From an uncultured Planctomycetaceae bacterium (GTDB lineage: Bacteria; Planctomycetota; Phycisphaerae; SM23-33), in assembly GCA_964531695.1 (NCBI GenBank), contig CAZHEH010000004.1, forward strand, positions 68,232 to 132,231: a DNA stretch of 64,000 nt, in the 5' to 3' direction. The stretch's first letter is position 1. Every line of letters starts with the position of its first letter. A program made the translations under genes and the position numbers. The notes beneath the pieces are model-generated. The model was not told the DNA's origin and made no database searches. It saw only the letters and a program-made list of their open reading frames with translations. This document shows, one piece after another, positions 2 through 38,659 of this stretch.

Positions 2-796
2 CTCGAGCAGCCGGTGCGGGTCGCCCTCGATCACGGCCCGGTCCATGAACGCGCCGGGGTCGCCCTCGTCGGCGTTGCAGATCAAGTACTTGCGGTCGCT
101 CGGGGCGTCCGCGGCGAACTGCCATTTCCTACCGGTCGGGAAACCGCCGCCGCCCCGCCCGCGCAGGCCGCTTTCCGTCACGGCCGCCCGCACCTCCTCG
201 GGTGTCATCTCGCGCAGGGCGTGGGCCAGCGCGCCGTAGCCGTCCGAGGCGACGTACTCCTCGATGCGGGCCGGGTCTATCCGACCGCAGTTGGACAGCA
301 CCCACCGCGTCTGCCGCGCGAAGAACGCGTGCTCGTCCAGCCACGGCACGCCGTCCCACGGCCGTCGGCCTTCCGCGCCGCGGTACTGGCCGAGGGCCTT
401 GTCCGCCGGGGCCTGTCCCGCCAGGACGGCGTCCATGAGTTCGGCGACCTCGCCCGCCGTTACCTCGCGGAACGAGATGCGCGGCCGGTCAGGCAGTTGG
501 ACATCCACGATCGGCTCGGCCGCACAGAGGCCGACACAGCCGACCTCGACGACCTCGGCGTCCACCTGGGCCGATTCCAGGTAGGCCTGGAGCGCCTCGA
601 GCGTCTTGCCGGCGCCGGCGCCTAGGCCGCAAGTACCCGTTCCGACGAACACGGCCGGGCGCGTAAGCCGCTCGCGCCGCCAGTCGGCCAGCGTTTCCTC
701 CGGGCGATTCGTCGGGGTCGCGCCGTCGCGGAGGTACGCCACAAGCTCTTGGGGGGGCGGGGCGAGCGCGGTTTGTGTGTCAGTCAGCGTTGTCAT
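2..796 (-). CDS. nuoF: NuoF/HydB-family flavin-FeS subunit (bifurcating hydrogenase beta/NADH dehydrogenase-like), runs off the left edge
   Basis: Not in the ORF track; translated manually from ATG at 796. N-terminal thioredoxin-like 2Fe-2S motifs (VGTGTCGLGAG, GCVGLCAAEP), then SGLRGRGGGGFPTG and ICNADEGDPGAFMDR. Confidence 0.9.
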   Translation of the reverse strand, partial: MTTLTDTQTALAPPPQELVAYLRDGATPTNRPEETLADWRRERLTRPAVFVGTGTCGLGAGAGKTLEALQAYLESAQVDAEVVEVGCVGLCAAEPIVDVQLPDRPRISFREVTAGEVAELMDAVLAGQAPADKALGQYRGAEGRRPWDGVPWLDEHAFFARQTRWVLSNCGRIDPARIEEYVASDGYGALAHALREMTPEEVRAAVTESGLRGRGGGGFPTGRKWQFAADAPSDRKYLICNADEGDPGAFMDRAVIEGDPHRLLE

Positions 797-1277
797 GGGT
801 CTTGGTCTCTCCCGCATCGGCGCGTCGCCGGTAGCTGTCGAGGATGGCCTTGAGCCCGTCGGGCGTGACCTTGGCGTGGAACTCGCCGTCGATCGCGACG
901 ACCGGCGCCAGGCCGCACGCCCCGATGCACGCGACGACCTCCAGCGTGAACACGCCGTCACGGGTCGTCTGCCCCGGCTCGACTCCAAGCTCCTCCTGGA
1001 GCACGTCCAGCACCTTCGCCGAGCCCTTCACGTGGCAGGCCGTGCCGCGGCAGACCTGGATCGTGAAACGTCCCGGCGCGTCGAACCGGAACTGGTTGTA
1101 GAAGGTCGCCACGCCGTAGATCTTGCTCGCCGGCAGGCGAAGCCGCTGACCCACCTCCTGCACGACCTCCTTCGAGAGGTAACCGTCCGCCTGCTGAATC
1201 TCCTGGAGGATGGGAATCAGCGCATCCCGCCCGGCGTTGGGGTACTTGTCCAGAATGCTCTTGGTCTGTGCGGTCAC
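780..1277 (-). CDS. nuoE: NuoE/HydC-family 2Fe-2S subunit
   Basis: LIPILQEIQ, YGVATFY, CRGTAC and CIGACGLAP motifs; overlaps rex and nuoF. Confidence 0.93.
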   Translation of the reverse strand: MTAQTKSILDKYPNAGRDALIPILQEIQQADGYLSKEVVQEVGQRLRLPASKIYGVATFYNQFRFDAPGRFTIQVCRGTACHVKGSAKVLDVLQEELGVEPGQTTRDGVFTLEVVACIGACGLAPVVAIDGEFHAKVTPDGLKAILDSYRRRADAGETKTHDNAD

Positions 1278-1912
1278 GTTACTGCGTCCTCGTTGATCTC
1301 GCCCTGCCGGGCGAAGTACGCCGCCTTTTCAAGGGCCGTGGCCATGTCGATGTCTTCCACGTGTACGCCGTCCGCCACCCGCAACGAGACCGGCGCGAAG
1401 TTCAGCAGGCCGCGTACACCCGCCCGCACCAGCGCATCGGCCACTTCCTGGGCCTGATCGGCGGGCACCGCCACGATGCCCACGTCGATGCCCTCGGCAA
1501 GCGCCACCTTGCTCAGCTCGTCCATCCCGTACACACGGCAGCCCTGAAGCACCCGGCCGGTCAGGCGCGGGTCGCGGTCGAACGCCGCGGCAATCCTCAG
1601 CTTCGGCCGCCGCCCCCGGAAATACGCCAGCAAGGCCGTGCCGAGGTTGCCGACGCCCACCAAAGCCACCGTCTGCCCGCCGCTCGGGTCCAGGAATCGC
1701 TCGACGCTCTCCAGAAGCTCCACCACCACATAGCCATGCTGCGGGCTGCCGCTGTATCCGATCACCATCAGATCCCGGCGGACCTGCGCGGCCGTGGCAC
1801 CGCTCCGCCGGGCCAGCTCGTGCGAGAACACGGCCTCGACGCCGTCGCGAGCCAATTCGCGAAGCACGCGGCCGTACACGCTCAGACGCTGGATTGTGCG
1901 GGGAGATACCAT
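1274..1912 (-). CDS. rex: Redox-sensing transcriptional repressor Rex
   Basis: TIQRLSVYGR, QVRRDL, GVGNLG Rossmann motif and NFAP; start trimmed to the ATG at 1912. Confidence 0.96.
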   Translation of the reverse strand: MVSPRTIQRLSVYGRVLRELARDGVEAVFSHELARRSGATAAQVRRDLMVIGYSGSPQHGYVVVELLESVERFLDPSGGQTVALVGVGNLGTALLAYFRGRRPKLRIAAAFDRDPRLTGRVLQGCRVYGMDELSKVALAEGIDVGIVAVPADQAQEVADALVRAGVRGLLNFAPVSLRVADGVHVEDIDMATALEKAAYFARQGEINEDAVT

Positions 1913-1953
1913 GCTTCTGTCGGCTTGCCTTACTGTCCGTTCATTGCGTAACA

Positions 1954-1971
1954 CTGTTACATCTTTCACAG
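1954..1971 (-). promoter_or_regulatory. Rex operator (ROP)
   Basis: Minus strand reads CTGTGAA-AGAT-GTAACAG versus the Rex consensus TTGTGAA-N4-TTCACAA; lies just downstream of the rex -10 box. Confidence 0.75.
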
Positions 1972-1973
1972 TC

Positions 1974-2002
1974 ATTCTAGTAAACCATCGCCAATGCGTC
2001 AA
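1974..2002 (-). promoter_or_regulatory. sigma70 promoter of the rex-nuoE-nuoF operon
   Basis: TTGACG-N17-TAGAAT on the minus strand. Confidence 0.8.
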
Positions 2003-2167
2003 TCCCCCTGGGGCAGAAAACTCGAATTCTCCGTTACGCGGGGAACGCCGGCCGGAACCGCCGTCCGATGGCCTACAATGCGTTATACCCAGCGAATTGA
2101 CCCCAAGACCGAAGTTCGGTAGGTGTGTTGCACGTAGGTCCGAACTGAGTATTCGAGAGGAATCCAG

Positions 2168-3037
2168 ATGTCGGCCGCCCCACCTGCCGTTCTCGTCTGT
2201 CGTTGCACGCAATGCGCCCACGTGCCCGATGAGGTTCCCGCGCAAGTCCTGGAAGACCTATGGCACGCGGGCATCGCCTGCTACGCCGTGGATGACCTGT
2301 GCCGCCTGGCCGCCCGGAAGGACCCGATGCTGGCCGGCTTGGCCGCCGAGACGGACCTCACGGTCGTCGCGTGCCAACCACGGGCCGTACGTTGGCTCTT
2401 TCACGCGGCCGAGGCCGACGGGCTCAACGGCGGCCCGCACGTTCTCAACATGCGGCAGGCCGGCGCGGCGGAGATCGTGAAGCAACTCGTCCCTGGCGGC
2501 ACCCCCGCAAGCCGGCGTGCGGCGCGGCCGTCGCCCAGGCCCGAGCCCGATTCGGATTCGGACGGGTGGATGCCCTGGTTCCCCGTCATCGACTACGACC
2601 GCTGCACCGGATGCCGGCAGTGCCTGGGCTTCTGCCTTTTTGGCGTATACGCAGTCGAGGACGGCCGCGTCGTCGTTGCCCATCCGGACAAATGTAAGAC
2701 CTACTGCCCCGCCTGCGCGCGCGTGTGCCCGAATGGGGCCATCCTGTTCCCGAAGCATGAATCCGAGGCCATCAACGGCGGCGAGAACGGCGACGCCGGC
2801 GAACCCGTGCAGGTCGATCTGTCGAAGCTTGCCGGGGGGAACCTGCACGATACCCTCCGGCGACGCAGCCGGGCCGTCCGAAACGGGCAGGAGCCGCAGC
2901 AAGCGGACGAGCCCTGCGCCTGCTCGCGCTTGCGGGAGCTGCAAGAACAGCTCGGCATCCCGGACGACGTGATCCGGCGGATCGAGCGCGAGTCGAAGGG
3001 CGGCTCGCCTCCCCGCGCCGACGGGGGCGGCACTTGA
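2168..3037 (+). CDS. Ferredoxin-like protein (2x 4Fe-4S) with a Cys-containing N-terminal domain
   Basis: CTGCRQCLGFC and CKTYCPACARVCP motifs; extra Cys in VCRC, DDLC, VACQPRAV and CAC. Confidence 0.8.
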   Translation: MSAAPPAVLVCRCTQCAHVPDEVPAQVLEDLWHAGIACYAVDDLCRLAARKDPMLAGLAAETDLTVVACQPRAVRWLFHAAEADGLNGGPHVLNMRQAGAAEIVKQLVPGGTPASRRAARPSPRPEPDSDSDGWMPWFPVIDYDRCTGCRQCLGFCLFGVYAVEDGRVVVAHPDKCKTYCPACARVCPNGAILFPKHESEAINGGENGDAGEPVQVDLSKLAGGNLHDTLRRRSRAVRNGQEPQQADEPCACSRLRELQEQLGIPDDVIRRIERESKGGSPPRADGGGT

Positions 3038-4614
3038 TCGGTCCCGCCGCCCCACTTCGCCCGGCCGTGGTGCTCGTGGCCGACCCGACCCTCAGCGCGG
3101 ATTACAGTGTGCTGTTCGAGGGCATATTCGCCACAATGCAGACTTCCGAGGTGCCCTCCTGGCTGATGCGGCGTTTGATGTGTCGCCCGGCAGCCCGTGA
3201 CGCGCGCGGGCGGGCGCGGGTCGCCCCACTGGGCCTGCGGCGGATGGAAGCGTGTCTGCTCGCCCGGACGGGCCTCCGGCCCGAGGACATCGCCGTCGCC
3301 ACGCCCCAATGGGTCGACTCACTGCTCGGCCCGTGGACCCGCCTTGTCGCGGTCTCGAGCAGCGATCCGCTCGGGCGGGGCATGAGCAACTCGACGACCG
3401 TTCACTTCTGCCGCGGCGAGCTGTACACGCAGCTCTGGACCGACCGGCTCATGCGGCGAATTCGACGGTCCAAGGACGAGCACGGCTTCCGCGTGGTCGC
3501 GGGCGGGGGCGGCGCGTGGCAGTACGCCCAGGACGCCGAGGCGACCGAGCGGCACGGGGTCGACACGGTATTCGAGGGCTACTTCGAGCGGCAAGGCCCG
3601 GACCTGTTCCAACGTCTGGGGGCCGGCGGGCCCGCCCCGCCGCACGTGCGCGAGGACGGCGCCGCCCTGCCGGTCGAGCCGATCCGCGGGCCGAGCACGA
3701 TGGGCATGGTCGAGCTGTCCCGCGGCTGCGGCAAGGGATGCCGCTTCTGCATCGCCGGGCGGACCGCCATGGAGCACGTTCCGATCGACACGATCCTGGC
3801 CGACGTGGAACGAAACGTCGCGGCCGGGCTCTCGTGCGCCGTCAGCAGCAGCGAGGACTTCTTCCGCTACGGCGGCCGGGGGCCGCACGTGGACTACGAT
3901 GCCCTGCATGGCCTTCTCGTCCGTCTGGGCGAGATCGAAGGGCTGCGGCTGCTGCAGATCGACCACGGCAATGTATCCTCGATCGCCCAGCTCGACGTGC
4001 CGCAGCTCCGCGAACTCCGCCGCCTGCTGGCCCGAGGAGGCGCGTCGGAGTATCCGTGGGTCAACATCGGTGTCGAGAGCGCGAACGGAGCTCTCGTGGC
4101 CGCGAATGGGCCGGGCAAAGTCGCCCCCTTCCGCCCGGACGCCTGGGAAGGTCTCGTCCGGGACGTGGCGGCCCGGCTGCACGAGGCCGGCTTCTTCCCG
4201 GTCTTCAGCATCGTGCTGGGCCTTCCCGGAGAGGCCCCGGACGACGTCGCCCGGACCCGCCGGCTCGTCGAGGAGCTGAAACGCCGCCCCGCGGCCGTGT
4301 TCCCGGTGTTCCATCAACCGGTGCAACCCGATGCCGGAGATGCGCTTACGCCCGCCAACCTGCGCCCGGACCAGCTCGAGCTGTTCACCGCCTGCTACGA
4401 GGCGAACTTCCGCTGGGTGCCCCGGCTGTATTGGGATAATCAGCGTGCGGCCGGCGTTCGGTGGACGCGCCGCGCCCTGTTGCAGCTACTCGGGCGCGGC
4501 GAGGTGCGGCTGTGGAGGCGGCGCTTCCGTCGGATGCGGCGGCGCATCCGCCCCGGCTCGGGCGCCGGCGCGGCCGTGTTGGACTCCGCGGCCGGACAGG
4601 TCGAAGGAGCATAG
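3034..4614 (+). CDS. Radical SAM enzyme, class B-like; N-terminus resembles the archaeal Grs (GDGT ring synthase) family
   Basis: CxxxCxxC motif (CGKGCRFC); ~230-aa N-terminal domain containing APLGLRRMEA, DPLG and VVAGGGG; TTG start overlaps the upstream stop. Confidence 0.85.
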   Translation: MIGPAAPLRPAVVLVADPTLSADYSVLFEGIFATMQTSEVPSWLMRRLMCRPAARDARGRARVAPLGLRRMEACLLARTGLRPEDIAVATPQWVDSLLGPWTRLVAVSSSDPLGRGMSNSTTVHFCRGELYTQLWTDRLMRRIRRSKDEHGFRVVAGGGGAWQYAQDAEATERHGVDTVFEGYFERQGPDLFQRLGAGGPAPPHVREDGAALPVEPIRGPSTMGMVELSRGCGKGCRFCIAGRTAMEHVPIDTILADVERNVAAGLSCAVSSSEDFFRYGGRGPHVDYDALHGLLVRLGEIEGLRLLQIDHGNVSSIAQLDVPQLRELRRLLARGGASEYPWVNIGVESANGALVAANGPGKVAPFRPDAWEGLVRDVAARLHEAGFFPVFSIVLGLPGEAPDDVARTRRLVEELKRRPAAVFPVFHQPVQPDAGDALTPANLRPDQLELFTACYEANFRWVPRLYWDNQRAAGVRWTRRALLQLLGRGEVRLWRRRFRRMRRRIRPGSGAGAAVLDSAAGQVEGA

Positions 4615-4618
4615 CCGA

Positions 4619-6253
4619 ATGAACTCAAGCGAACGTGCCGACAAGGCGACCGTCCGGCGGCGGGTGAACCGCCCCGTCCAGCCGGGCATACCGGCCGCGA
4701 AGGCCGAGCGGGACCGGCTGCGGAGGGACATCCGCGCGTTCGTGGAGCGCGAAAGGGTCTCCCCGCCGTTGAGCGTGCCCGAACTCCAGGCCCTCGCCGC
4801 TCGCGCCGTGGACGCGCTCGGCACGGACGCCGCCTACCGCGACTTCGCTGCAATCCTCATCCACAACGCAGCGTGGCGCGAGACCGTCGCGGGCATCCCC
4901 TACGACCGCCGGCTGTTGCTGGTGCCGCAATGCCTCCGGGACGCCGAGCGCTGCCCGGGCGAGATCGACGAGTACGGCCTGCTGTGCCGGCGCTGCGGGC
5001 GGTGCGTGCTGGACGAGTTGCACGAGGAGGCCGAGGCGCTCGGATACGCGGTGATGGTCGCCGAGGGCTCAGCCGTGGTCATGTCGCTGGTTGAGTCCGG
5101 CCGGATTCAGGCGGTCGTCGGCGTAAGCTGCCTGAGCGTTCTGGAGCAGGTCTACCCGTACATGGAGGCGGGTGCGGTGCCGGGGCTGGCGATTCCTCTG
5201 CTGCAGGACGGCTGCCGCGACACGGCCGTGGACGTGGACTGGCTGCTCGAGGAGATTCACCGGTCCAGCGAGCACCCGTTCACCCGACTGGCCCTCGACG
5301 ACCTGCGGGAGCGCGTCGACGGCTGGTTCGCCCAAGAAGACCTGTACGACCTGCTGGGTCGGCCCGCCGGCGAGGCCGAGCGGCTCGGCCGGGACTGGCT
5401 GGCGCTGGCGGGCAAGCGCTGGCGCCCGTTCCTGGCGGCCACGGCCTACCAGGCCCTCTGCGACGAGCCGGACGCCCCCCTGCCGGCTGACGTTCGTCGG
5501 GCGGCCGTGGCGGTCGAGTGCTTCCACAAGGCGAGCTTGATCCACGACGACATCGAGGACGACGAGCGCGAACGCTACGGAGCGCCGACGATGCACGTCG
5601 CCCGCGGCGTGCCCGTGGCCCTGAATGTCGGGGACTTCCTACTCGGTGAGGGCTACCGCCTGCTGGCCGAGTGCGACGGGCCGGCCCCCGCGATGCTCCG
5701 GGCGGCCGCCCAAGGCCACCGCGAACTTTCGCTCGGACAGGGCGCGGAGCTGACCTGGCGCGGCGAGAGCCGTGAGCTGTCGCTGGAGGAGGTGCTGGAC
5801 ATCTTCCGCCGAAAGACGGCGCCGGCCTTCGAGGTCGCTCTACGCGTCGGGGCGGCGTGTGCCGGAGCCCCGGCCGAGCTGGACCGACCGATTTCGCGAT
5901 ACTGCGAGGCGCTCGGCATCGCCTACCAGATTCGCGACGACCTGCGGGACTTCGACGGGCACGACGGCGACCTGGCGGCCGGCCGGCCTTCGGTCGTGCG
6001 GGCACTGGCGCGGGCCAAGCTCCGCGGACCCGTGACGCCCGACGCGGCGAAGCGCTGCGGCGCGGTGGACGAGGCGTGGGCGCTGCTGGAGAGCCACAAG
6101 GACCGAGCGGTCCACTCGCTGGCGGAGATCGACAGCGTTGCGCTCAAGTGCCTGCTGCGCCGCATCCTCGGCAAGATCTTCTGCGATGTCGAGATCATGC
6201 CCTGCTGCAACGACGCGCCCCCGGACGACCCCGGCGCGTTCGAGCCGCGATGA
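4619..6253 (+). CDS. DUF116-like Cys-rich domain fused to a trans-polyprenyl diphosphate synthase
   Basis: LLVPQCLR, CRRCGRC and GVSC (DUF116-like); FARM HDDIEDD, KT motif and SARM YQIRDDLRD; RBS GAAGGAG before the ATG at 4619. Confidence 0.85.
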   Translation: MNSSERADKATVRRRVNRPVQPGIPAAKAERDRLRRDIRAFVERERVSPPLSVPELQALAARAVDALGTDAAYRDFAAILIHNAAWRETVAGIPYDRRLLLVPQCLRDAERCPGEIDEYGLLCRRCGRCVLDELHEEAEALGYAVMVAEGSAVVMSLVESGRIQAVVGVSCLSVLEQVYPYMEAGAVPGLAIPLLQDGCRDTAVDVDWLLEEIHRSSEHPFTRLALDDLRERVDGWFAQEDLYDLLGRPAGEAERLGRDWLALAGKRWRPFLAATAYQALCDEPDAPLPADVRRAAVAVECFHKASLIHDDIEDDERERYGAPTMHVARGVPVALNVGDFLLGEGYRLLAECDGPAPAMLRAAAQGHRELSLGQGAELTWRGESRELSLEEVLDIFRRKTAPAFEVALRVGAACAGAPAELDRPISRYCEALGIAYQIRDDLRDFDGHDGDLAAGRPSVVRALARAKLRGPVTPDAAKRCGAVDEAWALLESHKDRAVHSLAEIDSVALKCLLRRILGKIFCDVEIMPCCNDAPPDDPGAFEPR

Positions 6254-7146
6254 CCCTCCGCGAAGAGATGACTGTCACGGCCCGCCGCGGGGCTGCCGCC
6301 CTCGGCCCGGCGGCGGCCGACGCCGCCGCGTTCGTCGCCTCGCGACGCGGCCCGAACGGCGGCTGGACCGGCCGCTCCGGGGAGGACGACCTGTACTACG
6401 GCGTCTTCGCCACGGCCGCGCTGGCCGCGCTGGGGCAAGACGCGTGCGACCCCGAGCTGCGCGCATGGCTGGCGGCCGCGCCGGAGCCCGACGCCCTGGA
6501 CCTGGTCCACCTGAGTTCGCTGATCCGCTGCCGGGCGACGGCCTGCCCGGAGCAACTGGACGAGACCTTCCGCACGGCCGCACTGGCGCGACTCGGGGCG
6601 TTTCGCAGCGCCGACGGCGGCTACGCGCTCGTTCCGGCCGGACGATCCGGCAGCGCATACGGCGCGTTCCTGGCGCTCGGGGCGCTCCAGGACCTGGGCG
6701 CTGCAGCGGACGACCCCGACGCCACGGCCGGGGCTCTGGCCGCGCTTCGCCCGTCCACCGGCGGCTACTGCAACGAGACGGCGGTCCCCGCGCCGTCCGC
6801 GCCGGCGACCGCCGCGGCCGTGGCCGTCCTGCACCAGCTCGGCCGGCCGACGGATGACGCGGCCCTGAGGTGGCTGCGCGAGGCGTGCTACCGCGGCGGC
6901 GGCTTCACGGTCGTGCCCGCACTGCCCGTGCCGGACCTGCTCTCCACAGCGGTGACCGTGCACGCCCTGGCCACCTGCGGCTTTCCCCTCGGCGACATCG
7001 CGGGCGAGGTACGCGAGTTCGTAATGGCCCGTCGCACCCCAGCCGGCGGCTTCTGCGCGTCGGCCGCCGACACCGAGCCGGACGTCGAGTACACGTTCTA
7101 CGGGCTGATGGCGATGGGACACGTCGCCGCGGAGGGGGACGGATGA
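6250..7146 (+). CDS. Prenyltransferase/squalene-oxidase-repeat (alpha/alpha barrel) protein
   Basis: Repeated QW-like motifs (GPNGGW, SADGGY, STGGY, GGGF, TPAGGF) and DVEYTFYGL; ATGA overlaps at both ends. Confidence 0.75.
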   Translation: MTLREEMTVTARRGAAALGPAAADAAAFVASRRGPNGGWTGRSGEDDLYYGVFATAALAALGQDACDPELRAWLAAAPEPDALDLVHLSSLIRCRATACPEQLDETFRTAALARLGAFRSADGGYALVPAGRSGSAYGAFLALGALQDLGAAADDPDATAGALAALRPSTGGYCNETAVPAPSAPATAAAVAVLHQLGRPTDDAALRWLREACYRGGGFTVVPALPVPDLLSTAVTVHALATCGFPLGDIAGEVREFVMARRTPAGGFCASAADTEPDVEYTFYGLMAMGHVAAEGDG

Positions 7147-8939
7147 GCGCCGCCCCGGCCGGACTCGACGAAACGCTCGACCGCGCCCGCGCGCACCTGT
7201 TGGCCGCCCGCAACGCGGACGGCCATTGGCGCGGACGGCTGAGCAGCAGCGCCCTGGCCACAGCCACGGCCGTGGGGGCCTGGGCCCTCGCGGATCGATC
7301 CGAACGGCAGGACCGCATCGCCCGCGCCCTCGACTGGCTGGCAGCCGACCAGAACGCCGACGGCGGCTGGGGCGACACGCCCGACAGCGGCAGCAACATC
7401 GCTACCACGTTGCTGGCCTGGTCCGCCCATGCGCTGGCCGGGCAGGATGGCGGCGACTGGGAACCGACGCTGGCAGCCGCCCGGAGCTGGCTGGCCCGGC
7501 AGGCGGGCTCGCTGGAGCCGGACCGGCTCGTGGCCGCCGTACACGAACGCTACGGCAACGACCGCACCTTCTCCGCTCCGATCCTTACGATGGGCGCGCT
7601 GGCCGGGCGGCTCGGCGGCGGGCGCGACGCCTGGCATACCGTCGCGCCGTTGCCCTTCGAGTTGGGAGCCCTGCCGCACCGCGCTCTGCGGTGGCTGCGG
7701 CTGCCGGTGGTGAGCTACGCCCTGCCGGCGATGATCGCCATCGGCCTCGCGCGGCAACACCATCGCCCGTCGGCCAACCCGTTGCGGCGGCTCAGCGCGC
7801 GGATGGCGCGCCGGGCGACGCTCCAGCGCCTGACGGCGATCCAGCCGGAAAGCGGCGGCTACCTCGAGGCCCCGCCGCTGACGGCATTCGTGGCGATGGC
7901 ACTGGCCTCCACCGGACGCACGGACCACCCGGCCGTGCGGCGGGGGTTGGCCTTCCTCGACGCGCTCCAGCGCGACGACGGCTCCCTGCCGATCGACACG
8001 GACCTGGCCACATGGCTGACGACGCAGGCCATCGAGGCGCTCGCCGGCGTCGGGCCCGCCCTTGCCGACACGGACGCGGTGCGAGTCCGCGCCTGGCTGC
8101 TCGCCCAACAGCACCGGCGGCCGCACGTCTACACCGGCGCGGCGCCCGGCGGCTGGGCTTGGACGGACCGAGCCGGCGGCGTGCCGGATGCCGACGACAC
8201 GGCCGGTGCGCTGGTCGCGCTGCGTGCGCTGCCCGGCGACCGGCCGCGAGAGGCCGCGTCACACGGCATCCGGTGGCTGATGGACCTGCAGAACCGCGAC
8301 GGCGGGATCCCAACCTTCTGCCGCGGCTGGGGCCGCCTGCCGTTCGACCGGAGCTGTGCGGACCTCACGGCCCACGCCCTCCGCGCCTGGCGGGCCTGGC
8401 GAGCCGAGTTGCCGGAGCTGCACGGCCGGATCGAACATGCATCCCGGCGGGCGCTGGCGTACCTGCAAGGCGCCCAGCGGGCCGACGGCGCGTGGCTGCC
8501 ATTGTGGTTCGGCAACGAGGCCTCACTCGATCAAGCAAACCCCACCTACGGCACGGCCCGCGTGCTGGCCGCCTTGGCCGAGTATGGCAACGCCCCCGGC
8601 GTCCCCGAGATGGTCGCCGGCGGCGCCGCCTGGCTCTGCTCCACCCAAGGCCCGGACGGCGGCTGGGGCGGGGACGCCGACTGTCCGCCGAGCGTCGAGG
8701 AGACGGCCCTGGCCGTCGACGCGATGACACGAACGGCTCGGGCCGACGCCGAAGACGGCGCGCACCGCCGGGCCGCCCAGCGCGGCGCCGCCTGGCTCAT
8801 CGAGCGGACGGACGCCGGGCGAAGCTTCCCGGCCGCACCAATCGGGCTCTACTTCGCCGAGTTGTGGTACGCCGAGCGGCTGTACCCCGTCATATTCACC
8901 GTCTCGGCCTTATCCCGCCTTCGTGTGAGGCGGCCTTGA
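7143..8939 (+). CDS. Squalene-hopene cyclase-like class II terpene cyclase
   Basis: Intact DXDD motif (PDADDT); QW repeats QNADGGW, QRDDGS, QNRDGG, QRADGAW and QGPDGGW; IGLYFA near the C-terminus. Confidence 0.88.
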   Translation: MSAAPAGLDETLDRARAHLLAARNADGHWRGRLSSSALATATAVGAWALADRSERQDRIARALDWLAADQNADGGWGDTPDSGSNIATTLLAWSAHALAGQDGGDWEPTLAAARSWLARQAGSLEPDRLVAAVHERYGNDRTFSAPILTMGALAGRLGGGRDAWHTVAPLPFELGALPHRALRWLRLPVVSYALPAMIAIGLARQHHRPSANPLRRLSARMARRATLQRLTAIQPESGGYLEAPPLTAFVAMALASTGRTDHPAVRRGLAFLDALQRDDGSLPIDTDLATWLTTQAIEALAGVGPALADTDAVRVRAWLLAQQHRRPHVYTGAAPGGWAWTDRAGGVPDADDTAGALVALRALPGDRPREAASHGIRWLMDLQNRDGGIPTFCRGWGRLPFDRSCADLTAHALRAWRAWRAELPELHGRIEHASRRALAYLQGAQRADGAWLPLWFGNEASLDQANPTYGTARVLAALAEYGNAPGVPEMVAGGAAWLCSTQGPDGGWGGDADCPPSVEETALAVDAMTRTARADAEDGAHRRAAQRGAAWLIERTDAGRSFPAAPIGLYFAELWYAERLYPVIFTVSALSRLRVRRP

Positions 8940-9182: not shown

Positions 9183-9211
9183 TTGACAAGGCCCCTTCTG
9201 AAACCTATATT
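9183..9211 (+). promoter_or_regulatory. sigma70 promoter upstream of dksA
   Basis: TTGACA-N17-TATATT. Confidence 0.8.
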
Positions 9212-11786: not shown

Positions 11787-11819
11787 TACCGCCCGCCCGC
11801 GCTGGGTATGCTCGTTCCC

Positions 11820-12839
11820 GTGAGCATCCGCGTCCTGGAACACACGCCGGAGGAGCTGCGCTCGGCCGTCGAAGCCGCCGGGCAGCCCGGCTACCGCGCC
11901 AAGCAACTTGCCGACTGGGTCTATGACAAGGCCGTGACGGACCCGTCGGCGATGAGCAACGTGCCGGCAGCGCTGGCCCATGAGGCGCGGGTACTGACCT
12001 CCCGCATCGCGGCTCGCGCCGATTCCCGCGACGGCACGGTCAAGTTATTGCTGGAGCTGCACGACGGCGAGCGGATCGAGTGCGTGCTGATCCCCACGCG
12101 GGACCGTGCGACCGCATGCATCTCGACTCAGGTCGGCTGCGCCTTCCGCTGCACCTTCTGCGCCACGGGCCAAGGTGGATTCCTGCGCGACCTGACCGGC
12201 GGCGAAATCCTCGAGCAGCTCCTGCACCTCCGCCAGGCGGCCGGCCGGCAGATCACGAACGTCGTGTTCATGGGCATGGGGGAGCCGCTGGCCAACTACG
12301 ACGCGACGGTGCGGGCCCTGCGGGCGATCGTCGACCCGGAGCGATTCGGCATCTCCGCGCGGTCCGTCACCGTTTCCACGGTCGGGCTGCCGGACGGGAT
12401 TCGCCGCTTGGCGACCGAGGACGTTCCCGTGACGCTGGCGCTGTCACTCCATGCGCCGAACGACGCACTGCGGCGAAAGCTGATGCCCCACGCGGCGGAG
12501 GAGCCCCTGGCCGAGATCGTATCCGCAGCGCGGGACTTCTACGCCAGCCGGAAGCGCGAGGTCACGCTGGAGTATCTGCTGCTGGCCGGCGTAAACGACT
12601 CAGCGGTTTGCGCGGATTCGCTTGCCCGGTTGGCCCACCGGCTGCGTTGCAACGTCAACGTCATCCGGTACAATCCCGTCGCCGGGCTGCCGTACGCCCG
12701 CCCCGACGGGAACGCGGCCCGCGCCTTCGTCCGGCGGCTGCGCCGGGGCGGCGTGAACGCTCACCTGCGCCGCAGCCGGGGCCGGGACGCCGAGGCCGCC
12801 TGCGGACAGCTCCGGCAGCGCGCATCCCGCACGCCGTAG
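11820..12839 (+). CDS. rlmN: Dual-specificity RNA methyltransferase RlmN
   Basis: CISTQVGCAFRCTFC, VFMGMGEP and AACGQL; GTG at 11820 lies 7 nt after TATGCT (the track starts the ORF at 11808). Confidence 0.93.
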   Translation: MSIRVLEHTPEELRSAVEAAGQPGYRAKQLADWVYDKAVTDPSAMSNVPAALAHEARVLTSRIAARADSRDGTVKLLLELHDGERIECVLIPTRDRATACISTQVGCAFRCTFCATGQGGFLRDLTGGEILEQLLHLRQAAGRQITNVVFMGMGEPLANYDATVRALRAIVDPERFGISARSVTVSTVGLPDGIRRLATEDVPVTLALSLHAPNDALRRKLMPHAAEEPLAEIVSAARDFYASRKREVTLEYLLLAGVNDSAVCADSLARLAHRLRCNVNVIRYNPVAGLPYARPDGNAARAFVRRLRRGGVNAHLRRSRGRDAEAACGQLRQRASRTP

Positions 12840-19518: not shown

Positions 19519-22500
19519 CTACCGGCCGGCCACCGCATCCGGCTTGGGCGTGATCGTCATCAGGCCGCTGCCCGAGATCGCCTCGATGAAAGGCGTGTAC
19601 ATCGCCTCGGCCGAGCTGGGCAGCACGCGGAACGTGCCGGGCTGCTCGCACACGAGCGTGTAGGTCAGCTCTCGCTCGCCCTTGGGCACCCAGCTCGCGA
19701 AGAACGCCACCTTCGTGTCCCGCAGCTCCATGTTGGCGTACATGCCGTCGCCGTACGCCGAGCCGCTGACCAACCGGAACGGCTCGCAGCCGGAGGGCTT
19801 GGGATCCTCGAACACGACGTATTCCAGGTTCTCGTCCGCCTCGATGGTCAGCTTGACCTCCACCCGCTGGCCCGTCGTGATTTCCGCGCCGAACTCCAGC
19901 GGCTCCCGGTTGTAGCGCAGATCCGGGAACTTCTCGGTCACGACCTTGCCGTTCTTCCACACCTGCCGCGTGTTCTCGAACTCCTCGGGCACGAGGCGGA
20001 AGTACTCGCGCGTGACGGCGATCCGGTGCCCGGCCGGCTCGATGACCTCCGCCTTGTCGAAGTACCGCAGGTGCCCGCCCCAGTACAGGTTGCCCTTGCC
20101 GGAACGGCGGATCTCGACGGTGTGCTCTCCGGGCGGCAAGGCCCCGGCCGGGATGACCGCGCGGCTCGGGAAGGTGAACAGGTTGTCCTTTCGGACGCGA
20201 ACCTCGTGCACCTTGCGCCCGTCGACGAGCACGGTGTACGTCTGGTCGCAGTCCAGCTCGCCTGCCTTGCGGGCGTAGCGGGCCAGGGCGTAGACCGCCA
20301 TGGCCGTGCCCTTCGTGTTGTGCCAGTACACGCCGCGGCGGTTCTGCACGAGCCAGTTGGCCGCCATCGGCACGTGCTCGTGGTCGGGGTCCACCGTCAG
20401 CATCGCCTGGAGCACCCAGGCGGTCGTCTCCGTCGCGCCCTGGTACCAGTACCACCAGCCGCCGGTGTCGCCCCAATGGGCGACGCCCTGGGCCTCGTCG
20501 ACCGTCACGGTGTTCTGGAAGTTCTCGACGATCGTCCGGGCCTCGCCATTGCGCTCGGCCGAGTGCAGGGCCAGGGCCAAGTACGCCCGGCCGTAGTCGG
20601 TCATGCGGTCACGCGCCTTGAACAGCCGGTCCAACTCGGCCGTGAGCTTCTCGTTCTTCGCCCAGGCATTGCCACGGGCCCGCCCGATCACGTAGTGCAT
20701 GAATGCCCGCGTGTTGTCGTTGTAGGTGTGCCGCCACCACCAGTTGGGCCGCTCGCCCGCCTCCAGCGGCGGCCGTGCGGCCCGCTCGACGAGCCAGTCG
20801 GCGGCCCGGTTGATCATGCCATCCGCCACGTGGACATCCACTTGCTGGGCCTCGACCAGTCCGAACGTGACGTAGGCCGTCATGTACGGGTCGCTCGAGC
20901 CGTGCCGCCACCAGCCCCAGCCGCCGTCGCCGTGCTGGAAGCCCTTCAGCCGGTTCAGCCCGTCGGCGATCATCTTCTCGACCTCGCGCTCGGAGTAGAC
21001 CGGGTTGCGGCCCATCCGCTTGCGGATGAAGGCGTAGCGGGCCTTGAGCTTGGGGTCGGCCGCGCTGCGGTCCTCGACCATCTCGCGGATGTCGTCCAGG
21101 TCCACGCCCGCGGCGTCCAGCGTCTGCCGAACGACGACGGTCGGGAGGAAGCGGCTCATCGTCTGCTCCGTGCACCCGTACGGGTAGCGGGCGAGGTACG
21201 GCAGCGCGTCCATCGCCACGGCCGCCAGGGACGGCTTCAGCGTAACGGTCAGCGACTGCGAGCCCTCGCCGATCGCCTCCGGCACGGTGATGTTGAAGCG
21301 GACGTTGTCGTCGCCGGCGCCGGTCATCGCGCCGCTCCGGCCGATGAGCTTGGATGCGCCCCAGGGGACGATGGGCTTGGTCCGCTCGTACGCGTCGCTC
21401 TCGCGGGCGCCCAGCGCGCGGGCCGTGAGCTTAACGTCGCCCGGCCGGGCCGCGGTAGTCTTGAAGTCCACGCGAACCTCCCCACCGGCCGCGACCGTCA
21501 CGTCGAGGGGCTGGCCGGAGTCGTAGTCCCGCCACTCGCCCTCGACCTTCGCCTGCCGCAGCGTCAGCTCGCCGCCCAGTCCCTCGCTCTTGAGGTCCAG
21601 GCGGAGCTGCTGGGGCTCGTCGTAGTAGTTGTGGGCGATGAGCGTGACGTAGCTGTGGTCGCCCTCGGTGAAGAACCGTCCGCTCTCCAGCCGGACGATA
21701 ACCCGCTTGGTGGTGATCACGTCCGTCCGCGTCTGTCCGACGCGGGTGTCCTTGTCCACCGCAATGGCGTGCAAGGCGAACGTCGTGAGCTGGTCGGGCA
21801 TGGTGACGGGAACCTCGGCCATGCCGTCGGCGTCCGTCTCTACCGCGCCGGCCCACAGGACCGTGTCCCGGAACTCCTTGCGGACCATGGGCTCGACAAG
21901 CCCGCTGCCCTCGTCATCCATACTTCTACCCTTGGCCATGGGGCGGCCAGCCGGGGCTGGCGCTGCCGCGTCGGCCTCCTTTATCGCCTCGCGCATCTGG
22001 CGCATCGCGACCCCATCAACAAGGCGGGGGACCGGACCGCGAAAGCCGGTCCCCCGCCCCCCCGGCCAGCCCGCCAGGCGTGCCGGACCGTAGTAGCTGT
22101 CCATCGTGGAGACACGCGTGTGCCGCACGAAGCCGTAGAACGACTTCTCGATCTGCTCGCGGAACTCCGGCTGGATGTAGTAGACGCTCGAGTCGACCAT
22201 CATCAGGGCGACCTGCCCGACGACGGGCTTACCCGTGCGGCGGTCGGTCAGCTTGACCTGAACGGGGGCCTCCTCCCGCGGCTGGTACTTCGCATCCTCG
22301 CCTCCGCCCTTGGAGCCCTTGCCGACCTGGACCTCCACGTCCAGGAACCGGTGCGTCGGCGGCACGACGATCTGCTTGGCGTCCCGGTAGACCTTCTCGT
22401 CGCGCAGCATCGTCGCGGTCAGCGTGAAGTTCGGGCACAGCGACTTGTCCACGTCGATCTCGACGAGCTTGGAGTTCTTCTCCACGTGCACGACGCGATG

Positions 22501-25317
22501 GAACAGCAGGTCGTCCGCCTCGCCGGTCAGCAATACGCGGCTGTTCTCCCGGCTGGTGTTGACGAGGACCCGCATCGTCTCGCCGATCTCGTACTGGTCG
22601 GACGCAGGAACGATCCGGAGCAGGTTGTAGGCGTAGTTCGCCTCGGCGCCGGTCTTGCTGGCGACCCACAGTTCGCACGTGCCCTCGACCGGCTTGGGAT
22701 CCGCGCCCAGTTCGCCCTCGGGCCGAATCTCCCGGAGCGTCACACGGAAGCGACCGGTCATGTCCGGGGTGAAGCGGAACCGCGCCCGCCCGTTCTCGTC
22801 GACCTGGACGTCGCCCTCGTGGACCTTCTCCGCCAGCCGCTCCTCCCAGATGACCTTCTGGTTCCCGGCCTCGTCTTCTTCCACCTGCCGAATCCGCTCG
22901 ATCCGGCGGACCTCGGCCCGGAAGCCCGCCATCACCGGCTGGCCGGAGGGGTTCTCTGCGCGGACCTTGACCTCGACGCTGTCGCCCGGCCCATACACAT
23001 GCCGCGCCGGCTCGCAGTAGACGAAGAACGGTGCGTGCGTCACCTTCACCGAGCCCGTCGAGCGGATCACGCGGCGGGACGCGTCGGTCACCTCGGCCTG
23101 CACGGCGAACTGGAGATCCAGCTTCTCGTGGCCCTCGATCGGCTCGGCCTCGACCGTCACGAACGCCTCGCCCTCATCGTTCATCTGGGCCGTGCCGCGG
23201 GCGACCAGCTCGTCGAAGCGCGGACCCCACCCGTGGTGGCGGTACCGGCTGCCGCTGAGTTCAGCCCAGTACCAATGCCACGGGCGGGGCCAGTAGTAGT
23301 TGTGGTTATAGCTCTGCTTGCGGACGGTGAAGCTGACCTCGCCGCCGGAGACCGGCTGTCCGTAGTAGTAGTCGGCCGAGATCTTGATGCGGACCTCGTC
23401 GCCCACGCGGTAGTCCGGCCGGTCGGGCTCGACGGACACCTTGAACTCCGGCTTCTTGTACTCCTCGACGCGGAAGCGGTTGCCCGGCATGTACCAGTGG
23501 TGAACGTCGTGCCCCTGGACGTTGAGCTGGATGCGGTACACGCCCAGCGGCGGCTGCTCGCCGATGGCAAGCGAGCCGGTCAGGGCACCGTACTCGTCCG
23601 TGACGTGCTCCTTGGAGTAGATTGTCTCGCCCTTCGGGTTGATGACCTTGACCCGTACCTTTTTGCCGGCGACGTTGTGGTACACGCCGTCCTGCATGTG
23701 ACGGATGACCTGCTTGAAGTGCACCGTCTGGCCCGGTCGGTACACCGGCCGTGCCGTGAAGCCGTAGACTTTGTACGGCTCGCGCCAGCCCCACCAGTGC
23801 CAGTGGTAGCCCCCGTGGCCAGTGATCGCCTGGTGCTTGCCGTCGCGGACGGCCGCGATCCAGTTGCACGACGGCACACGGGGCAGCTCGAGCTCGGCCA
23901 GTCCGGCGTCGTTCGTCTTCCCCGAGGCGAGGCGGCCCTTATCGCCGCGGTCGCGCACGACGGTCACGGCCGCGGCGCCGGCCGGCTCGCCCGTGTCGGC
24001 GTCGGCGACGAACAGCAGCGCCTGATCCGCGTCCATCTTGGCCACGGCCGCGAGCTTGGACACGACGACGAGGCACGTCGCCTTCTCGCTCTTGCCGTCA
24101 GGGTTGGCGCCCTCGGCCGTGATGAGCCAGGCACCGGGCCCTTCAACCGGCGGGCGGATGGGAACCGTTGTCTGCTTCTCGCGGTCGGGCGCGTTCTGAT
24201 GCCACTGGTGCTTGCCCTCATCGGGGGTATCGAAGGTCCACGTATGCTCCGGCTCGCCCGCCGCCGGTGTCATCTCCCGCACGGCCCTGTGCGGGTCCTT
24301 GACGCGCTTCAGCGCCTCGGGCAAATCGATCGGTCGGGCCGTCAGGCGGAGCCGATCGATGTTCCGCACCTGCCAGCGGACGGCGAGCTCGTCGTCCGGC
24401 AGGAAGGCGCCCTTGACCGCCAAGGTAACCTGGGGGCGCTTGATGGCCTCGATCTCATCCTTCGCGCGCCCGATCCATTCCTTCGCCTTGGGGAAGCTCT
24501 CGCGGACCTTCTCGAAGGCGGCGATCGCCTCCGTGTACCGTCCGAAGTTGCGGCAAACATGCCCGACGGCGAACTGCGAGGCGGCCGCCTGCTCGAGCTT
24601 GGGGAAATCCTCGGCGCAGCGGCGGAACAGCTCGATGCCCTTCGAGGCCGCCTCCCAGTCGCCCAGCTCGCTCACTCGCTGCCCGGCCGTGTAAAGCGCT
24701 TGCGCCCGCGTGAGGTCCTTGGCGCCGTCCAGCTCGGCAACATGCTCGTAGATCTCCGCGGCCTTGAGCACGTGATGCCGCCTGCGCTGCTGCCAGTGCC
24801 ACGGCTCGCCGGCTTCCTTCTGCTGGGCGGGCTGGGGCAGCCAGTAGCTGTGGAGCAGCATCTCGGCCGCCTTCAGGTACGCCTGGGCCGCCTCTTGGTC
24901 GGAATCCGCCTTCTCCAGGACTTCCCCCGCCGCCTTGTAGTGCTCGAAGGCCTTGTCCCGGGGGCCGCGGCGTTCCTGGCACCAGGCCAGCGCCAGCAGG
25001 AACTCGGCGTCCTCGGCCAACTCCGGGTGGTCTTCCATCAGGGTGGCGGCGAACTCGCGCCCGTCCTTGTCCGGCAGGCGGCACGTGCTCATCGCCTTGA
25101 GCCGCTTGGCGGCGAAGAGCGTGTCCTCGTCCGGGTCGGAGGCGATGACCTCTTCGGCCAGCTTCATGGCGTCCCGGTAGTTGTGCCGCTCGTAGGCCTT
25201 CTCGGCTTCGCTTAGCGTACCGTCGGCGACGGCGACGCCCACCAGGATGAACGCGGCGAGCAGGCACAGGGCCAAGCCGTAGCCCGGCCGTCCGTGGGTC
25301 GAGTGGGTGCGGGACAT
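19519..25317 (-). CDS. Alpha-2-macroglobulin family protein with an N-terminal TPR region
   Basis: 1932 aa with a signal peptide; MG motifs (YRPGQTV, FRVEEYKKPEF, VRKEFRDT, PDQLTTF) and the thioester motif YPYGCTEQ. Confidence 0.93.
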   Translation of the reverse strand: MSRTHSTHGRPGYGLALCLLAAFILVGVAVADGTLSEAEKAYERHNYRDAMKLAEEVIASDPDEDTLFAAKRLKAMSTCRLPDKDGREFAATLMEDHPELAEDAEFLLALAWCQERRGPRDKAFEHYKAAGEVLEKADSDQEAAQAYLKAAEMLLHSYWLPQPAQQKEAGEPWHWQQRRRHHVLKAAEIYEHVAELDGAKDLTRAQALYTAGQRVSELGDWEAASKGIELFRRCAEDFPKLEQAAASQFAVGHVCRNFGRYTEAIAAFEKVRESFPKAKEWIGRAKDEIEAIKRPQVTLAVKGAFLPDDELAVRWQVRNIDRLRLTARPIDLPEALKRVKDPHRAVREMTPAAGEPEHTWTFDTPDEGKHQWHQNAPDREKQTTVPIRPPVEGPGAWLITAEGANPDGKSEKATCLVVVSKLAAVAKMDADQALLFVADADTGEPAGAAAVTVVRDRGDKGRLASGKTNDAGLAELELPRVPSCNWIAAVRDGKHQAITGHGGYHWHWWGWREPYKVYGFTARPVYRPGQTVHFKQVIRHMQDGVYHNVAGKKVRVKVINPKGETIYSKEHVTDEYGALTGSLAIGEQPPLGVYRIQLNVQGHDVHHWYMPGNRFRVEEYKKPEFKVSVEPDRPDYRVGDEVRIKISADYYYGQPVSGGEVSFTVRKQSYNHNYYWPRPWHWYWAELSGSRYRHHGWGPRFDELVARGTAQMNDEGEAFVTVEAEPIEGHEKLDLQFAVQAEVTDASRRVIRSTGSVKVTHAPFFVYCEPARHVYGPGDSVEVKVRAENPSGQPVMAGFRAEVRRIERIRQVEEDEAGNQKVIWEERLAEKVHEGDVQVDENGRARFRFTPDMTGRFRVTLREIRPEGELGADPKPVEGTCELWVASKTGAEANYAYNLLRIVPASDQYEIGETMRVLVNTSRENSRVLLTGEADDLLFHRVVHVEKNSKLVEIDVDKSLCPNFTLTATMLRDEKVYRDAKQIVVPPTHRFLDVEVQVGKGSKGGGEDAKYQPREEAPVQVKLTDRRTGKPVVGQVALMMVDSSVYYIQPEFREQIEKSFYGFVRHTRVSTMDSYYGPARLAGWPGGRGTGFRGPVPRLVDGVAMRQMREAIKEADAAAPAPAGRPMAKGRSMDDEGSGLVEPMVRKEFRDTVLWAGAVETDADGMAEVPVTMPDQLTTFALHAIAVDKDTRVGQTRTDVITTKRVIVRLESGRFFTEGDHSYVTLIAHNYYDEPQQLRLDLKSEGLGGELTLRQAKVEGEWRDYDSGQPLDVTVAAGGEVRVDFKTTAARPGDVKLTARALGARESDAYERTKPIVPWGASKLIGRSGAMTGAGDDNVRFNITVPEAIGEGSQSLTVTLKPSLAAVAMDALPYLARYPYGCTEQTMSRFLPTVVVRQTLDAAGVDLDDIREMVEDRSAADPKLKARYAFIRKRMGRNPVYSEREVEKMIADGLNRLKGFQHGDGGWGWWRHGSSDPYMTAYVTFGLVEAQQVDVHVADGMINRAADWLVERAARPPLEAGERPNWWWRHTYNDNTRAFMHYVIGRARGNAWAKNEKLTAELDRLFKARDRMTDYGRAYLALALHSAERNGEARTIVENFQNTVTVDEAQGVAHWGDTGGWWYWYQGATETTAWVLQAMLTVDPDHEHVPMAANWLVQNRRGVYWHNTKGTAMAVYALARYARKAGELDCDQTYTVLVDGRKVHEVRVRKDNLFTFPSRAVIPAGALPPGEHTVEIRRSGKGNLYWGGHLRYFDKAEVIEPAGHRIAVTREYFRLVPEEFENTRQVWKNGKVVTEKFPDLRYNREPLEFGAEITTGQRVEVKLTIEADENLEYVVFEDPKPSGCEPFRLVSGSAYGDGMYANMELRDTKVAFFASWVPKGERELTYTLVCEQPGTFRVLPSSAEAMYTPFIEAISGSGLMTITPKPDAVAGR

Positions 25318-25407
25318 CGGCGTTCCTTTCCTCGGGCCGGGGCATGTGCCGACCCGATCTCGTACGGGGAGTTGGACGCCATCAGGCGCTGAAAGTTCCC
25401 GCCTTCA

Positions 25408-38440: not shown

Positions 38441-38473
38441 GGTGGTGTCTCCTGTGCTCAGGCAAAGAGCAAG

Positions 38474-38609: not shown

Positions 38610-38659
38610 GCCGGGCCGCTCGGCCGCGGCCGGGCGCGAGCCGAAAGGATCCTCTACCC

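Follow-up and report, generated by a model that had tools for sequence, protein, structure and literature searches.

A predicted lipid-modifying radical SAM enzyme of the Grs superfamily in a five-gene isoprenoid operon of a planctomycetal bacterium

Described relatives and the gene under study

GrsA and GrsB make rings, Gmm, Cgm and Pgm methylate, and Ted desaturates, and all of these enzymes are mutually homologous (PMC13459092; bioRxiv 10.1101/2025.10.20.683597). They are B12-binding radical S-adenosylmethionine (SAM) enzymes that modify lipid tails, and Gmm, Cgm, Pgm and Ted show that their scaffold supports several chemistries. We have analyzed a bacterial gene whose product is placed in the same superfamily by sequence comparison. 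It lies at positions 3034 to 4614 of a stretch of 64,000 nucleotides (contig CAZHEH010000004.1 of assembly GCA_964531695.1, positions 68,232 to 132,231), here called the window, from an uncultured Planctomycetaceae bacterium assigned to the Phycisphaerae. The gene and its product, referred to below as rSAM, belong to an operon that also encodes a ferredoxin-like protein, a polyprenyl diphosphate synthase fused to a DUF116 domain, a small α/α-toroid protein and a cyclase resembling squalene-hopene cyclase (SHC), and we propose that rSAM acts on the isoprenoid of this operon.

Grs homologues in bacteria have been reported from Solibacter usitatus (PMC10087280), from Acidobacteriae metagenome-assembled genomes (MAGs) of hot springs, where they were read as a transfer from Archaea (bioRxiv 10.1101/2022.08.15.504015), and, above all in Phycisphaerae, from 94 of the 684 MAGs of Black Sea Planctomycetota (PMC11868695). 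In their accessible text these three reports propose a role in ring formation of glycerol dialkyl glycerol tetraethers of the branched type (brGDGTs), and that text describes no gene neighborhood; the neighborhood presented here points instead to an isoprenoid substrate. rSAM very probably belongs to the same protein family as these homologues, including those of Black Sea Cloacimonadota MAGs, because the phyla match, its values against GrsA equal those given for the Acidobacteriae proteins (at least 27% identity to GrsA), and the sequences are nested among archaeal ones.

The cyclases have their own literature. According to the accessible text of Santana-Molina et al. (2020; PMC7306690), Planctomycete SHC-like proteins keep the catalytic residues, and their context suggests that the precursor is probably not squalene. 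In a 2025 preprint (PMC12324236), an SHC-like clade with no assigned function is described from the PVC and FCB groups, Spirochaetota and Acidobacteriota; it is sister to the head-to-tail epoxy-polyprenyl cyclases. For DUF116, a flavodoxin-like fold and an electron-transfer role have been proposed, and its fusion to a polyprenyl synthase was noted in Pirellula staleyi Psta_0175 (Makarova et al., PMC5898192). No text linking a Grs homologue with an SHC-like cyclase was found in the literature as far as it was accessible, and the supplement of Santana-Molina et al. on gene context may draw that link; nor did we find a literature link between DUF116 or the SHC-like clade and a radical SAM enzyme. 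Bacterial Grs homologues and Planctomycete SHC-like cyclases are already known, each reported separately. What is added here is the linkage of rSAM to an orphan SHC-like cyclase, a DUF116-synthase fusion and a ferredoxin, which redirects the functional hypothesis.

Relationship of rSAM to the Grs superfamily

The open reading frame (ORF) of rSAM is a genuine gene and not a chance ORF. Its TTG start codon overlaps the TGA stop codon of the upstream ferredoxin-like gene, and its codon use (GC content at third codon positions 0.82 in a 69% GC window, with values of 67–75% GC across the window) is biased as in bacteria of high GC content. When 5.8 billion protein clusters were searched, over 900 relatives were obtained. 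The 120 best share 53–66% identity with rSAM, have lengths of about 505–560 aa and belong to MAGs of Phycisphaerae, other Planctomycetota, Brocadiia, Acidobacteriota, Omnitrophica and Sumerlaeota. Every motif quoted in the original prediction, which had been made from the DNA letters without database searches, is present in the 526-aa translation: VLVAD (aa 13–17), SADY (aa 21–24), VPSWLM (aa 40–45), DARGRARVAPLGLRRMEACL (aa 56–75), DPLG (aa 111–114) and CGKGCRFC (aa 232–239). In a family alignment of 30 sequences the N-terminal strings fell on invariant or near-invariant columns. Both features that define the radical SAM superfamily were found, namely the CX3CX2C motif and a Pfam Radical_SAM (PF04055) score above the gathering cut-off (36.2 against 29.5 bits). 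The only invariant cysteines of the family alignment were C232, C236, C239 and C454, and since C454 is the sole one outside the CX3CX2C triad, rSAM has no auxiliary-cluster motif. The window contains a second radical SAM gene (11808–12839, plus strand), which encodes an ordinary RlmN-type rRNA/tRNA methyltransferase.

The resemblance to the GrsA/GrsB family, which the original prediction had put forward, was confirmed by comparisons anchored on GrsA itself. Authentic residues 1–63 of Sulfolobus acidocaldarius GrsA were taken from the atom coordinates (ATOM records) of an AlphaFold model published as Supplementary Dataset 3 of PMC11186832, the identity of the model being confirmed by the file description. 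These residues matched the N-terminus of the Desulfurococcus amylolyticus protein P0477 (62% over 58 aa, E 3e-28) and about 120 orthologues from Desulfurococcales, Sulfolobales and Pyrodictium (65–78%), and our alignment A3 is therefore that of the GrsA orthogroup. A profile search of genome contigs with this alignment gave 80 best loci that were all Desulfurococcales-like, S. acidocaldarius not being among them. Comparison of the bacterial-family profile with that of the GrsA orthogroup by hhalign yielded a probability of 100% and an E-value of 1.4e-51 over 446 columns (residues 11–465, 27% identity). By blastp, rSAM and P0477 shared 27.6% identity over 463 aa (aa 12–461; 172 bits), and matches of about 170 bits correspond to E ~5e-45 in a search of 1.84 billion proteins. 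The field accepts Grs homologues at E ≤ 1e-40, at least 20% identity and high coverage; with full-length homology to the GrsA orthogroup at 27–28% identity and about 88% coverage, rSAM is assigned to the superfamily of GrsA (Saci_1585) and GrsB (Saci_0240).

The N-terminal pattern that had been taken as a mark of Grs proteins fared less simply. It is conserved in the family and stands in register with the GrsA orthogroup in the profile alignment (VVL..DR, F.G..AT, VP..W, D..GR...AP.G.R..E..L, GG..AWQ, SRGC..GC.FC and SED...YG), whereas the fragment of GrsA residues 1–63 alone did not match rSAM significantly (pairwise BLAST, E 0.9). Because the N-terminal motif by itself is not significant, the homology rests on the full-length and profile comparisons.

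The suggested link between bacteria and archaea was found as well. When 1.84 billion representative proteins were scanned with HMMER in filter-only mode, 518 related clusters were obtained at E ≤ 1e-3, which included the clade of rSAM itself (37–56% identity) and about 100 more full-length clusters at 25–34% identity (E 1e-69 to 1e-28). All 11 distant clusters that carried an organism name were archaeal (Bathyarchaeia, Methanothrix soehngenii, Thermoplasmata, Desulfurococcaceae, Thermoprotei, Nezhaarchaeales and a Euryarchaeota MAG). Every named match of a search with the archaeal profile was archaeal too, which added Odinarchaeia, Thorarchaeota, Archaeoglobales, Nitrosocaldus, Ignisphaera and Desulfurococcus amylolyticus. 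The best-scoring archaeal relatives, from Bathyarchaeota (33% at 241 bits) and Odinarchaeia (31% at 228 bits), are uncharacterized, and each of the two genes stands alone amid housekeeping genes, a setting that is uninformative.

A neighbor-joining tree of 70 representatives (467 columns, 100 bootstraps) was calculated; the GrsA orthogroup was the characterized reference in the tree and in the sequence comparisons, and likeness to GrsB, Gmm, Cgm, Pgm and Ted is taken from the literature. The bacterial sequences, from Planctomycetota, Acidobacteriota, Omnitrophota, Sumerlaeota and others, formed one clade (100/100), its nearest relatives being P0128 (83) and P0141 (99), and the bacterial clade with these two was embedded among archaeal clades. 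The GrsA orthogroup fell elsewhere, in a fairly remote clade (87/100) that many archaeal clades separate from the bacterial one. A phylogeny had been suggested as a check on the kinship with Grs; in this one, the bacterial clade groups among uncharacterized archaeal clades and is separate from the GrsA orthogroup. rSAM is thus a member of the Grs superfamily but not an orthologue of GrsA, nor probably of GrsB, and the nesting is consistent with an old transfer from archaea to bacteria. Further differences from GrsA are the bacterial host without an evident GDGT pathway, the location of rSAM in an operon, and motifs specific to the bacterial proteins, such as SSSDPLG.GMSNTTT.

Other radical SAM families were considered and rejected. 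The best NCBIfam match of rSAM, TIGR04013 (the MJ_1487 family), scored 55.4 bits against a cut-off of 251. MiaB/RimO (TIGR00089) reached 28.6 bits against 251, and rSAM has neither the conserved N-terminal cysteines nor a Pfam TRAM match. HpnP, HpnR, HpnH, HpnJ, Tes and Gms were discarded because of their scores in NCBIfam and Pfam, the pattern of cysteines and the outcome of PDB searches by sequence and by fold. None of them occurred among the NCBIfam matches at E ≤ 0.01, assuming that NCBIfam models exist for all, nor among the PDB sequence or fold matches; the PDB sequence searches returned only RimO, TM_1862, MgmA and MiaB, all weakly. rSAM would accordingly resemble HpnP/HpnR, Tes, Gms and MiaB/RimO no further than the shared radical SAM core. 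The kinship with HpnP/HpnR-type methylases that had been named as the outcome contrary to the prediction was not seen, and the Grs similarity was significant. Hopanoid biosynthesis nevertheless offers a parallel, in that the product of a class II cyclase is modified by co-encoded radical SAM enzymes (HpnP, HpnR, HpnH), with which rSAM shares no specific sequence similarity.

An AlphaFold2 (AF2) model of rSAM, built on the family alignment, had a mean predicted local distance difference test score (pLDDT) of 89 and showed a Rossmann-like N-terminal domain, then an incomplete TIM barrel and, at the C-terminus, two long helices. Without an auxiliary Fe-S cluster, this is the architecture of the Grs superfamily. 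The N-terminal domain contains the family motifs VVLVAD.TLS, FEGIFATMQT, GRA..APLGLRR.E, SSSDPLG and GGGGAWQ, is in register with that of the GrsA orthogroup (hhalign) and has the same unusual insertion as in GrsA; the radical SAM cluster is the only cluster in both enzymes. Published GrsA models likewise have long helices at the C-terminus, described as a C-terminal α-helix or as two elongated helices and proposed to be a membrane anchor or to bind substrate (PMC11186832; PMC13459092), and those of rSAM are a predicted membrane- or lipid-binding element. The top Foldseek matches of the model were MgmA (PDB 9ccb), AprD4, MtaB/MiaB/RimO, TsrM, CysS and TokK. These share with rSAM a Rossmann-like N-terminal domain followed by a radical SAM barrel (E 6e-14 to 4e-9) and differ in their C-terminal domains, with TM-scores of about 0.5 and 8–18% identity. 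Such neighbors would place rSAM in the broad class of enzymes with a B12-binding-like N-terminal domain, and in nothing more specific.

The operon and its conservation

The features of the operon are collected in Table 1. Its gene arrangement indicates that rSAM is translationally coupled within a unit of five genes (2168–8939). The genes for the synthase, the small toroid and the SHC-like cyclase have overlapping start and stop codons. Two mechanically called ORFs in this part (5857–7146, 429 aa; 6870–8939, 689 aa) overlap heavily with others; homologues and start codons place the true starts at positions 6250 and 7143, where in both cases an ATG overlaps the stop codon of the gene before it. 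Neither a promoter-like site on the coding strand nor a terminator-like site was found inside the operon; a promoter-like site is situated after its end (9183–9211). The terpene cluster of the original prediction is thus real: synthase, toroid and cyclase come directly after rSAM.

Table 1. Coordinates of rSAM, its parts and its operon partners in the window.
Feature	Position	Strand	Basis or remark
Ferredoxin-like protein, 289 aa	2168..3037	+	First operon gene; Pfam Fer4 family matches, aa 138-192
Grs-superfamily radical SAM enzyme (rSAM), 526 aa	3034..4614	+	Subject of this study; second gene of the five-gene operon
N-terminal Rossmann-like ("B12-binding-like") domain of rSAM, aa 11-206	3064..3651	+	AF2: alternating strands and helices over aa 12-206
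CX3CX2C radical SAM cluster motif CGKGCRFC (C232, C236, C239)	3727..3750	+	Invariant in 30/30 family members
Two long C-terminal helices of rSAM, aa 445-472 and 477-505	4366..4548	+	AF2 secondary structure; aromatic/Arg-rich
DUF116::trans-polyprenyl diphosphate synthase, 544 aa	4619..6253	+	Pfam DUF116 3.5e-33, polyprenyl_synt 7.8e-40
Small α/α-toroid protein, 298 aa	6250..7146	+	Prenyltransferase/squalene-oxidase repeats, no DxDD; Pfam Prenyltrans 26.5 bits
SHC-like class II terpene cyclase, 598 aa	7143..8939	+	Pfam SQHop_cyclase_C 8.8e-38, SQHop_cyclase_N 1.7e-18

The ferredoxin-like protein has a 2x[4Fe-4S] dicluster core (Cys 146/149/152/156 and 176/180/183/187), whose pattern WFPVIDYDRC...CxxCxxCxxxC...CxxxCPxCxxxCP is invariant in all seven operon copies, and it is the likely electron donor of rSAM. 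The fused synthase shows the two Asp-rich motifs of trans-isoprenyl diphosphate synthases intact, the first (FARM) as DDIED at aa 310 (nt 5546–5560) and the second (SARM) as DDLRD at aa 440, and its DUF116 domain is Cys-rich. The residues at −5 and −4 before the FARM are small (Ala and Ser). Among the six operon copies with a synthase domain, the FARM is kept in all and the SARM in five, that of locus L092 reading NDLSD. The SHC-like protein carries the DxDD motif of class II terpene cyclases in its βγ didomain, as VPDADDTA (DADD at nt 8187–8198), invariant in 5/5 operon copies. Its best PDB sequence match was the SHC of A. acidocaldarius (3.8e-27), and an assignment as canonical hopene cyclase was rejected, the score being 112 bits against an NCBIfam cut-off of 431. 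It fits the SHC-like clade by description: the hosts are PVC and Acidobacteriota, the length lies within 550–700 aa, the catalytic residues are kept, the context likewise suggests a non-squalene precursor, and the clade is sister to cyclases of head-to-tail polyprenyls. The small toroid is kept in loci L001, L003, L090, L091 and L088, its motifs DGG, SDLYY and D.EYT.Y being invariant, and it may be a partner of the SHC-like cyclase.

Seven loci were compared in all, the window and six others. The operon was present, whole or in part, in each of the six, and the full five-gene order was found in three of them with unrelated flanks (a Phycisphaerae MAG, a 4.6-Mb ENA contig and an Acidobacteriota MAG). 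The DUF116::synthase fusion is kept in L001, L003, L090, L091 and L092. In the sister lineage P0141 (locus L088), only a few genes separate the rSAM homologue from an SHC-like gene, a geranylgeranyl reductase (GGR)-like flavoprotein gene, a Fer4::DUF116 fusion and a small toroid gene. Since DUF116 is fused to the synthase in the window and to a ferredoxin in L088, these modules are functionally tied, in the manner of a Rosetta stone.

Several details of these loci were also recorded. The gene order of L088 (1–9485) is SHC-like cyclase, geranylgeranyl-reductase-like FAD protein, Fer4::DUF116 without synthase, small toroid, ThiS, PALP enzyme, CobW, aquaporin and rSAM. In L003 (7224–9160) and L090 (4986–7118), genes for a GcvH-like protein and a CobW-family GTPase and an ORF of about 117 aa lie directly before the ferredoxin gene; they are absent from the window. 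The DUF116 domain of L092 (11335–12978) is without the CxxCGxxC segment conserved in the other copies.

The flanking genes in the window are housekeeping genes (rex, dksA-like, M48 peptidase, rlmN, leuA, glyA and thiE), with the division and cell wall (dcw) cluster, lon and htrA farther away. Divergent to the operon lie the gene for the Rex redox-sensing repressor (1274–2245, minus strand) and an ORF with a NuoF-like FMN domain (2–1027, minus strand). No match to the strict consensus of the Rex operator was found upstream of the operon. A degenerate Rex-type box, TGTTACATCTTTCACA (about 1953–1968), is situated just downstream of a minus-strand promoter-like site (2002–1974) and probably serves rex autoregulation. 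The dcw cluster (43711–56794, minus strand; Ddl, MurB, MurC, MurG, FtsW, MraY and a MurF-like ligase) shows that the organism is a peptidoglycan-making, FtsW-bearing member of a PVC-like lineage. The window also encodes a bacterial alpha-2-macroglobulin of 1961 aa (19519–25404, minus strand) with MG2, bait-region, TED and bMG10 domains, and a 547-aa protein (38156–39799, plus strand) that matches DUF6786 almost end to end (E 1.7e-138).

Candidate substrate and reaction

The arrangement of the seven loci makes it probable that rSAM modifies the isoprenoid of its own operon. The best explanation of its role as a whole, which we hold at a little short of even confidence, is that of a Grs-superfamily enzyme acting on this polyprenoid, most likely by an intramolecular ring closure of the Grs type. 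The choice of ring or C–C closure over methylation or desaturation is a weak preference and more tentative than that explanation. In such a pathway the synthase would join prenyl units head to tail into a chain of about C20 or more, and the SHC-like protein would cyclize it by protonation. rSAM would dock at the membrane through its basic, Arg/aromatic-rich C-terminal helices, and its cluster would be reduced by the ferredoxin and DUF116 modules. The reduced enzyme would then cleave SAM to a 5'-deoxyadenosyl radical, which would take a hydrogen atom from the isoprenoid and lead to a new C–C bond. On an unsaturated chain one hydrogen abstraction followed by radical addition to a neighboring double bond would suffice for a ring, without the second radical-storage step discussed for Grs (PMC13459092).

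The rival that comes closest is a cobalamin-dependent C-methylase, comparable to Gmm/Cgm/Pgm or HpnP/HpnR, acting on the polyprenoid of the operon or on its cyclized product; we regard it as possible, if on balance unlikely. Three of the six characterized superfamily relatives methylate (bioRxiv 10.1101/2025.10.20.683597), radical SAM enzymes with such an N-terminal domain most commonly carry out methylation, and the closest fold matches include the methylases MgmA, TsrM, CysS and TokK. These fold matches lose weight in that AprD4, which has no methylase activity, and MiaB/RimO fit equally well, and no curated methylase family of NCBIfam was matched above noise. The bacterial clade is moreover without a Pfam B12-binding signal. 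A CobW-family GTPase gene adjoins the operon in L003, L090 and L088, but proteins of this family serve zinc and iron enzymes too. An oxygen-independent isoprenoid desaturase like Ted, which might for instance make the double bond that the class II cyclase protonates, is improbable. Ted belongs to the same superfamily, and its taxa (Bathyarchaeota, anaerobic methanotrophic archaea (ANME)/methanogens, Thermoplasmatota and Asgard; bioRxiv 10.1101/2025.10.20.683597) resemble those of the top archaeal relatives of rSAM (Bathyarchaeota, Odinarchaeia, Methanothrix and Archaeoglobales), while the sister-lineage cluster has the GGR-like flavoprotein. However, polyprenyl diphosphates are already unsaturated, so that a desaturase has no evident role, and the AttH-like hydratase with which Ted is paired is missing from the Pfam matches of the window genes.

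The remaining two alternatives place the substrate outside the operon. A ring synthase for bacterial brGDGTs, working on methyl-branched alkyl chains and not on isoprenoids, is the role proposed in the reports cited above for the homologues of brGDGT-producing Solibacter usitatus and of Acidobacteriae, Planctomycetota and Cloacimonadota MAGs, and the rSAM family does have Acidobacteriota members. All seven loci, that of the Acidobacteriota MAG included, nevertheless pair rSAM with a polyprenyl synthase and/or cyclase-type toroids, and Tes, Mss and ether-lipid genes were not found beside rSAM in any of them. Because of this coupling to isoprenoid-module genes we consider the brGDGT role to have only a small chance of being right. 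Smaller still is the chance that rSAM is a non-lipid enzyme of the MiaB/RimO/YgiQ kind that acts on RNA, protein or a cofactor and lies beside terpene genes by accident. The weak RimO and MiaB matches (profile E 1e-6) and the YgiQ annotation given to many family members by the Joint Genome Institute are in its favor, yet the TIGR00089 score and the absence of N-terminal auxiliary-cluster cysteines and of a Pfam TRAM match speak otherwise. The similarity to the Grs orthogroup is far stronger, and the gene order is conserved across phyla.

Several observations weigh against ring closure by rSAM on the polyprenoid of its operon. The substrates known for Grs enzymes are biphytanyl chains that are saturated and bound to glycerol; such chains are not an obvious product of the operon, and no GGGPS/DGGGPS, Tes or reductase gene was found in the window. 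The reaction is not readable from sequence, as superfamily homologues carry out three chemistries; the nearest archaeal clades are uncharacterized, and the bacterial members are known from their sequences. In the tree, the sister archaeal clade beyond P0128 and P0141 is weakly supported, and the next node reached 3/100. The chain length is a guess from the residues at −5 and −4. The structural check for a cobalamin-binding fold was equivocal: the model resembles class B enzymes, but the Pfam B12-binding family PF02310 (cut-off 32.1 bits) had no match in bacterial members, even on the isolated N-terminal domain, and gave sub-threshold matches in archaeal relatives (P0477, E 0.0028; P0381, E 2.3e-6), so that the signal is even lower in the bacterial clade than in these. 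Lastly, the Omnitrophica MAG locus is without the large SHC-like cyclase gene, and in L092, with a 44%-identical rSAM, the cyclase gene precedes the synthase gene and the small toroid is absent; for these reasons the SHC-like cyclase may not be obligatory.

With these points in mind, ring closure on the isoprenoid of the operon is still the explanation that we prefer. A more specific version, in which the operon makes an undescribed bacterial polyprenoid membrane lipid by building a head-to-tail chain, cyclizing it with the SHC-like enzyme and then closing rings or cross-links in the Grs manner, is speculative and, taken as a whole, rather unlikely. Were it true, a function would be assigned to the long-orphan SHC-like clade and to DUF116, and the Grs homologues of metagenomes would mark an unrecognized source of biomarkers in anoxic settings, and not bacterial tetraether cyclization. 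Grs genes are used to assign the sources of ring-bearing tetraether lipids, on which palaeotemperature and pH proxies are based. Bacterial Grs homologues are currently read as candidate brGDGT ring synthases, and the wiring of the seven loci gives a different and testable hypothesis, that their substrate is probably a polyprenoid and not a branched tetraether lipid. Two questions, the role of the bacterial Grs homologues and the product of the SHC-like cyclases, are joined in one operon, through which a lipid-modifying enzyme from archaea may have entered a terpenoid pathway of bacteria.

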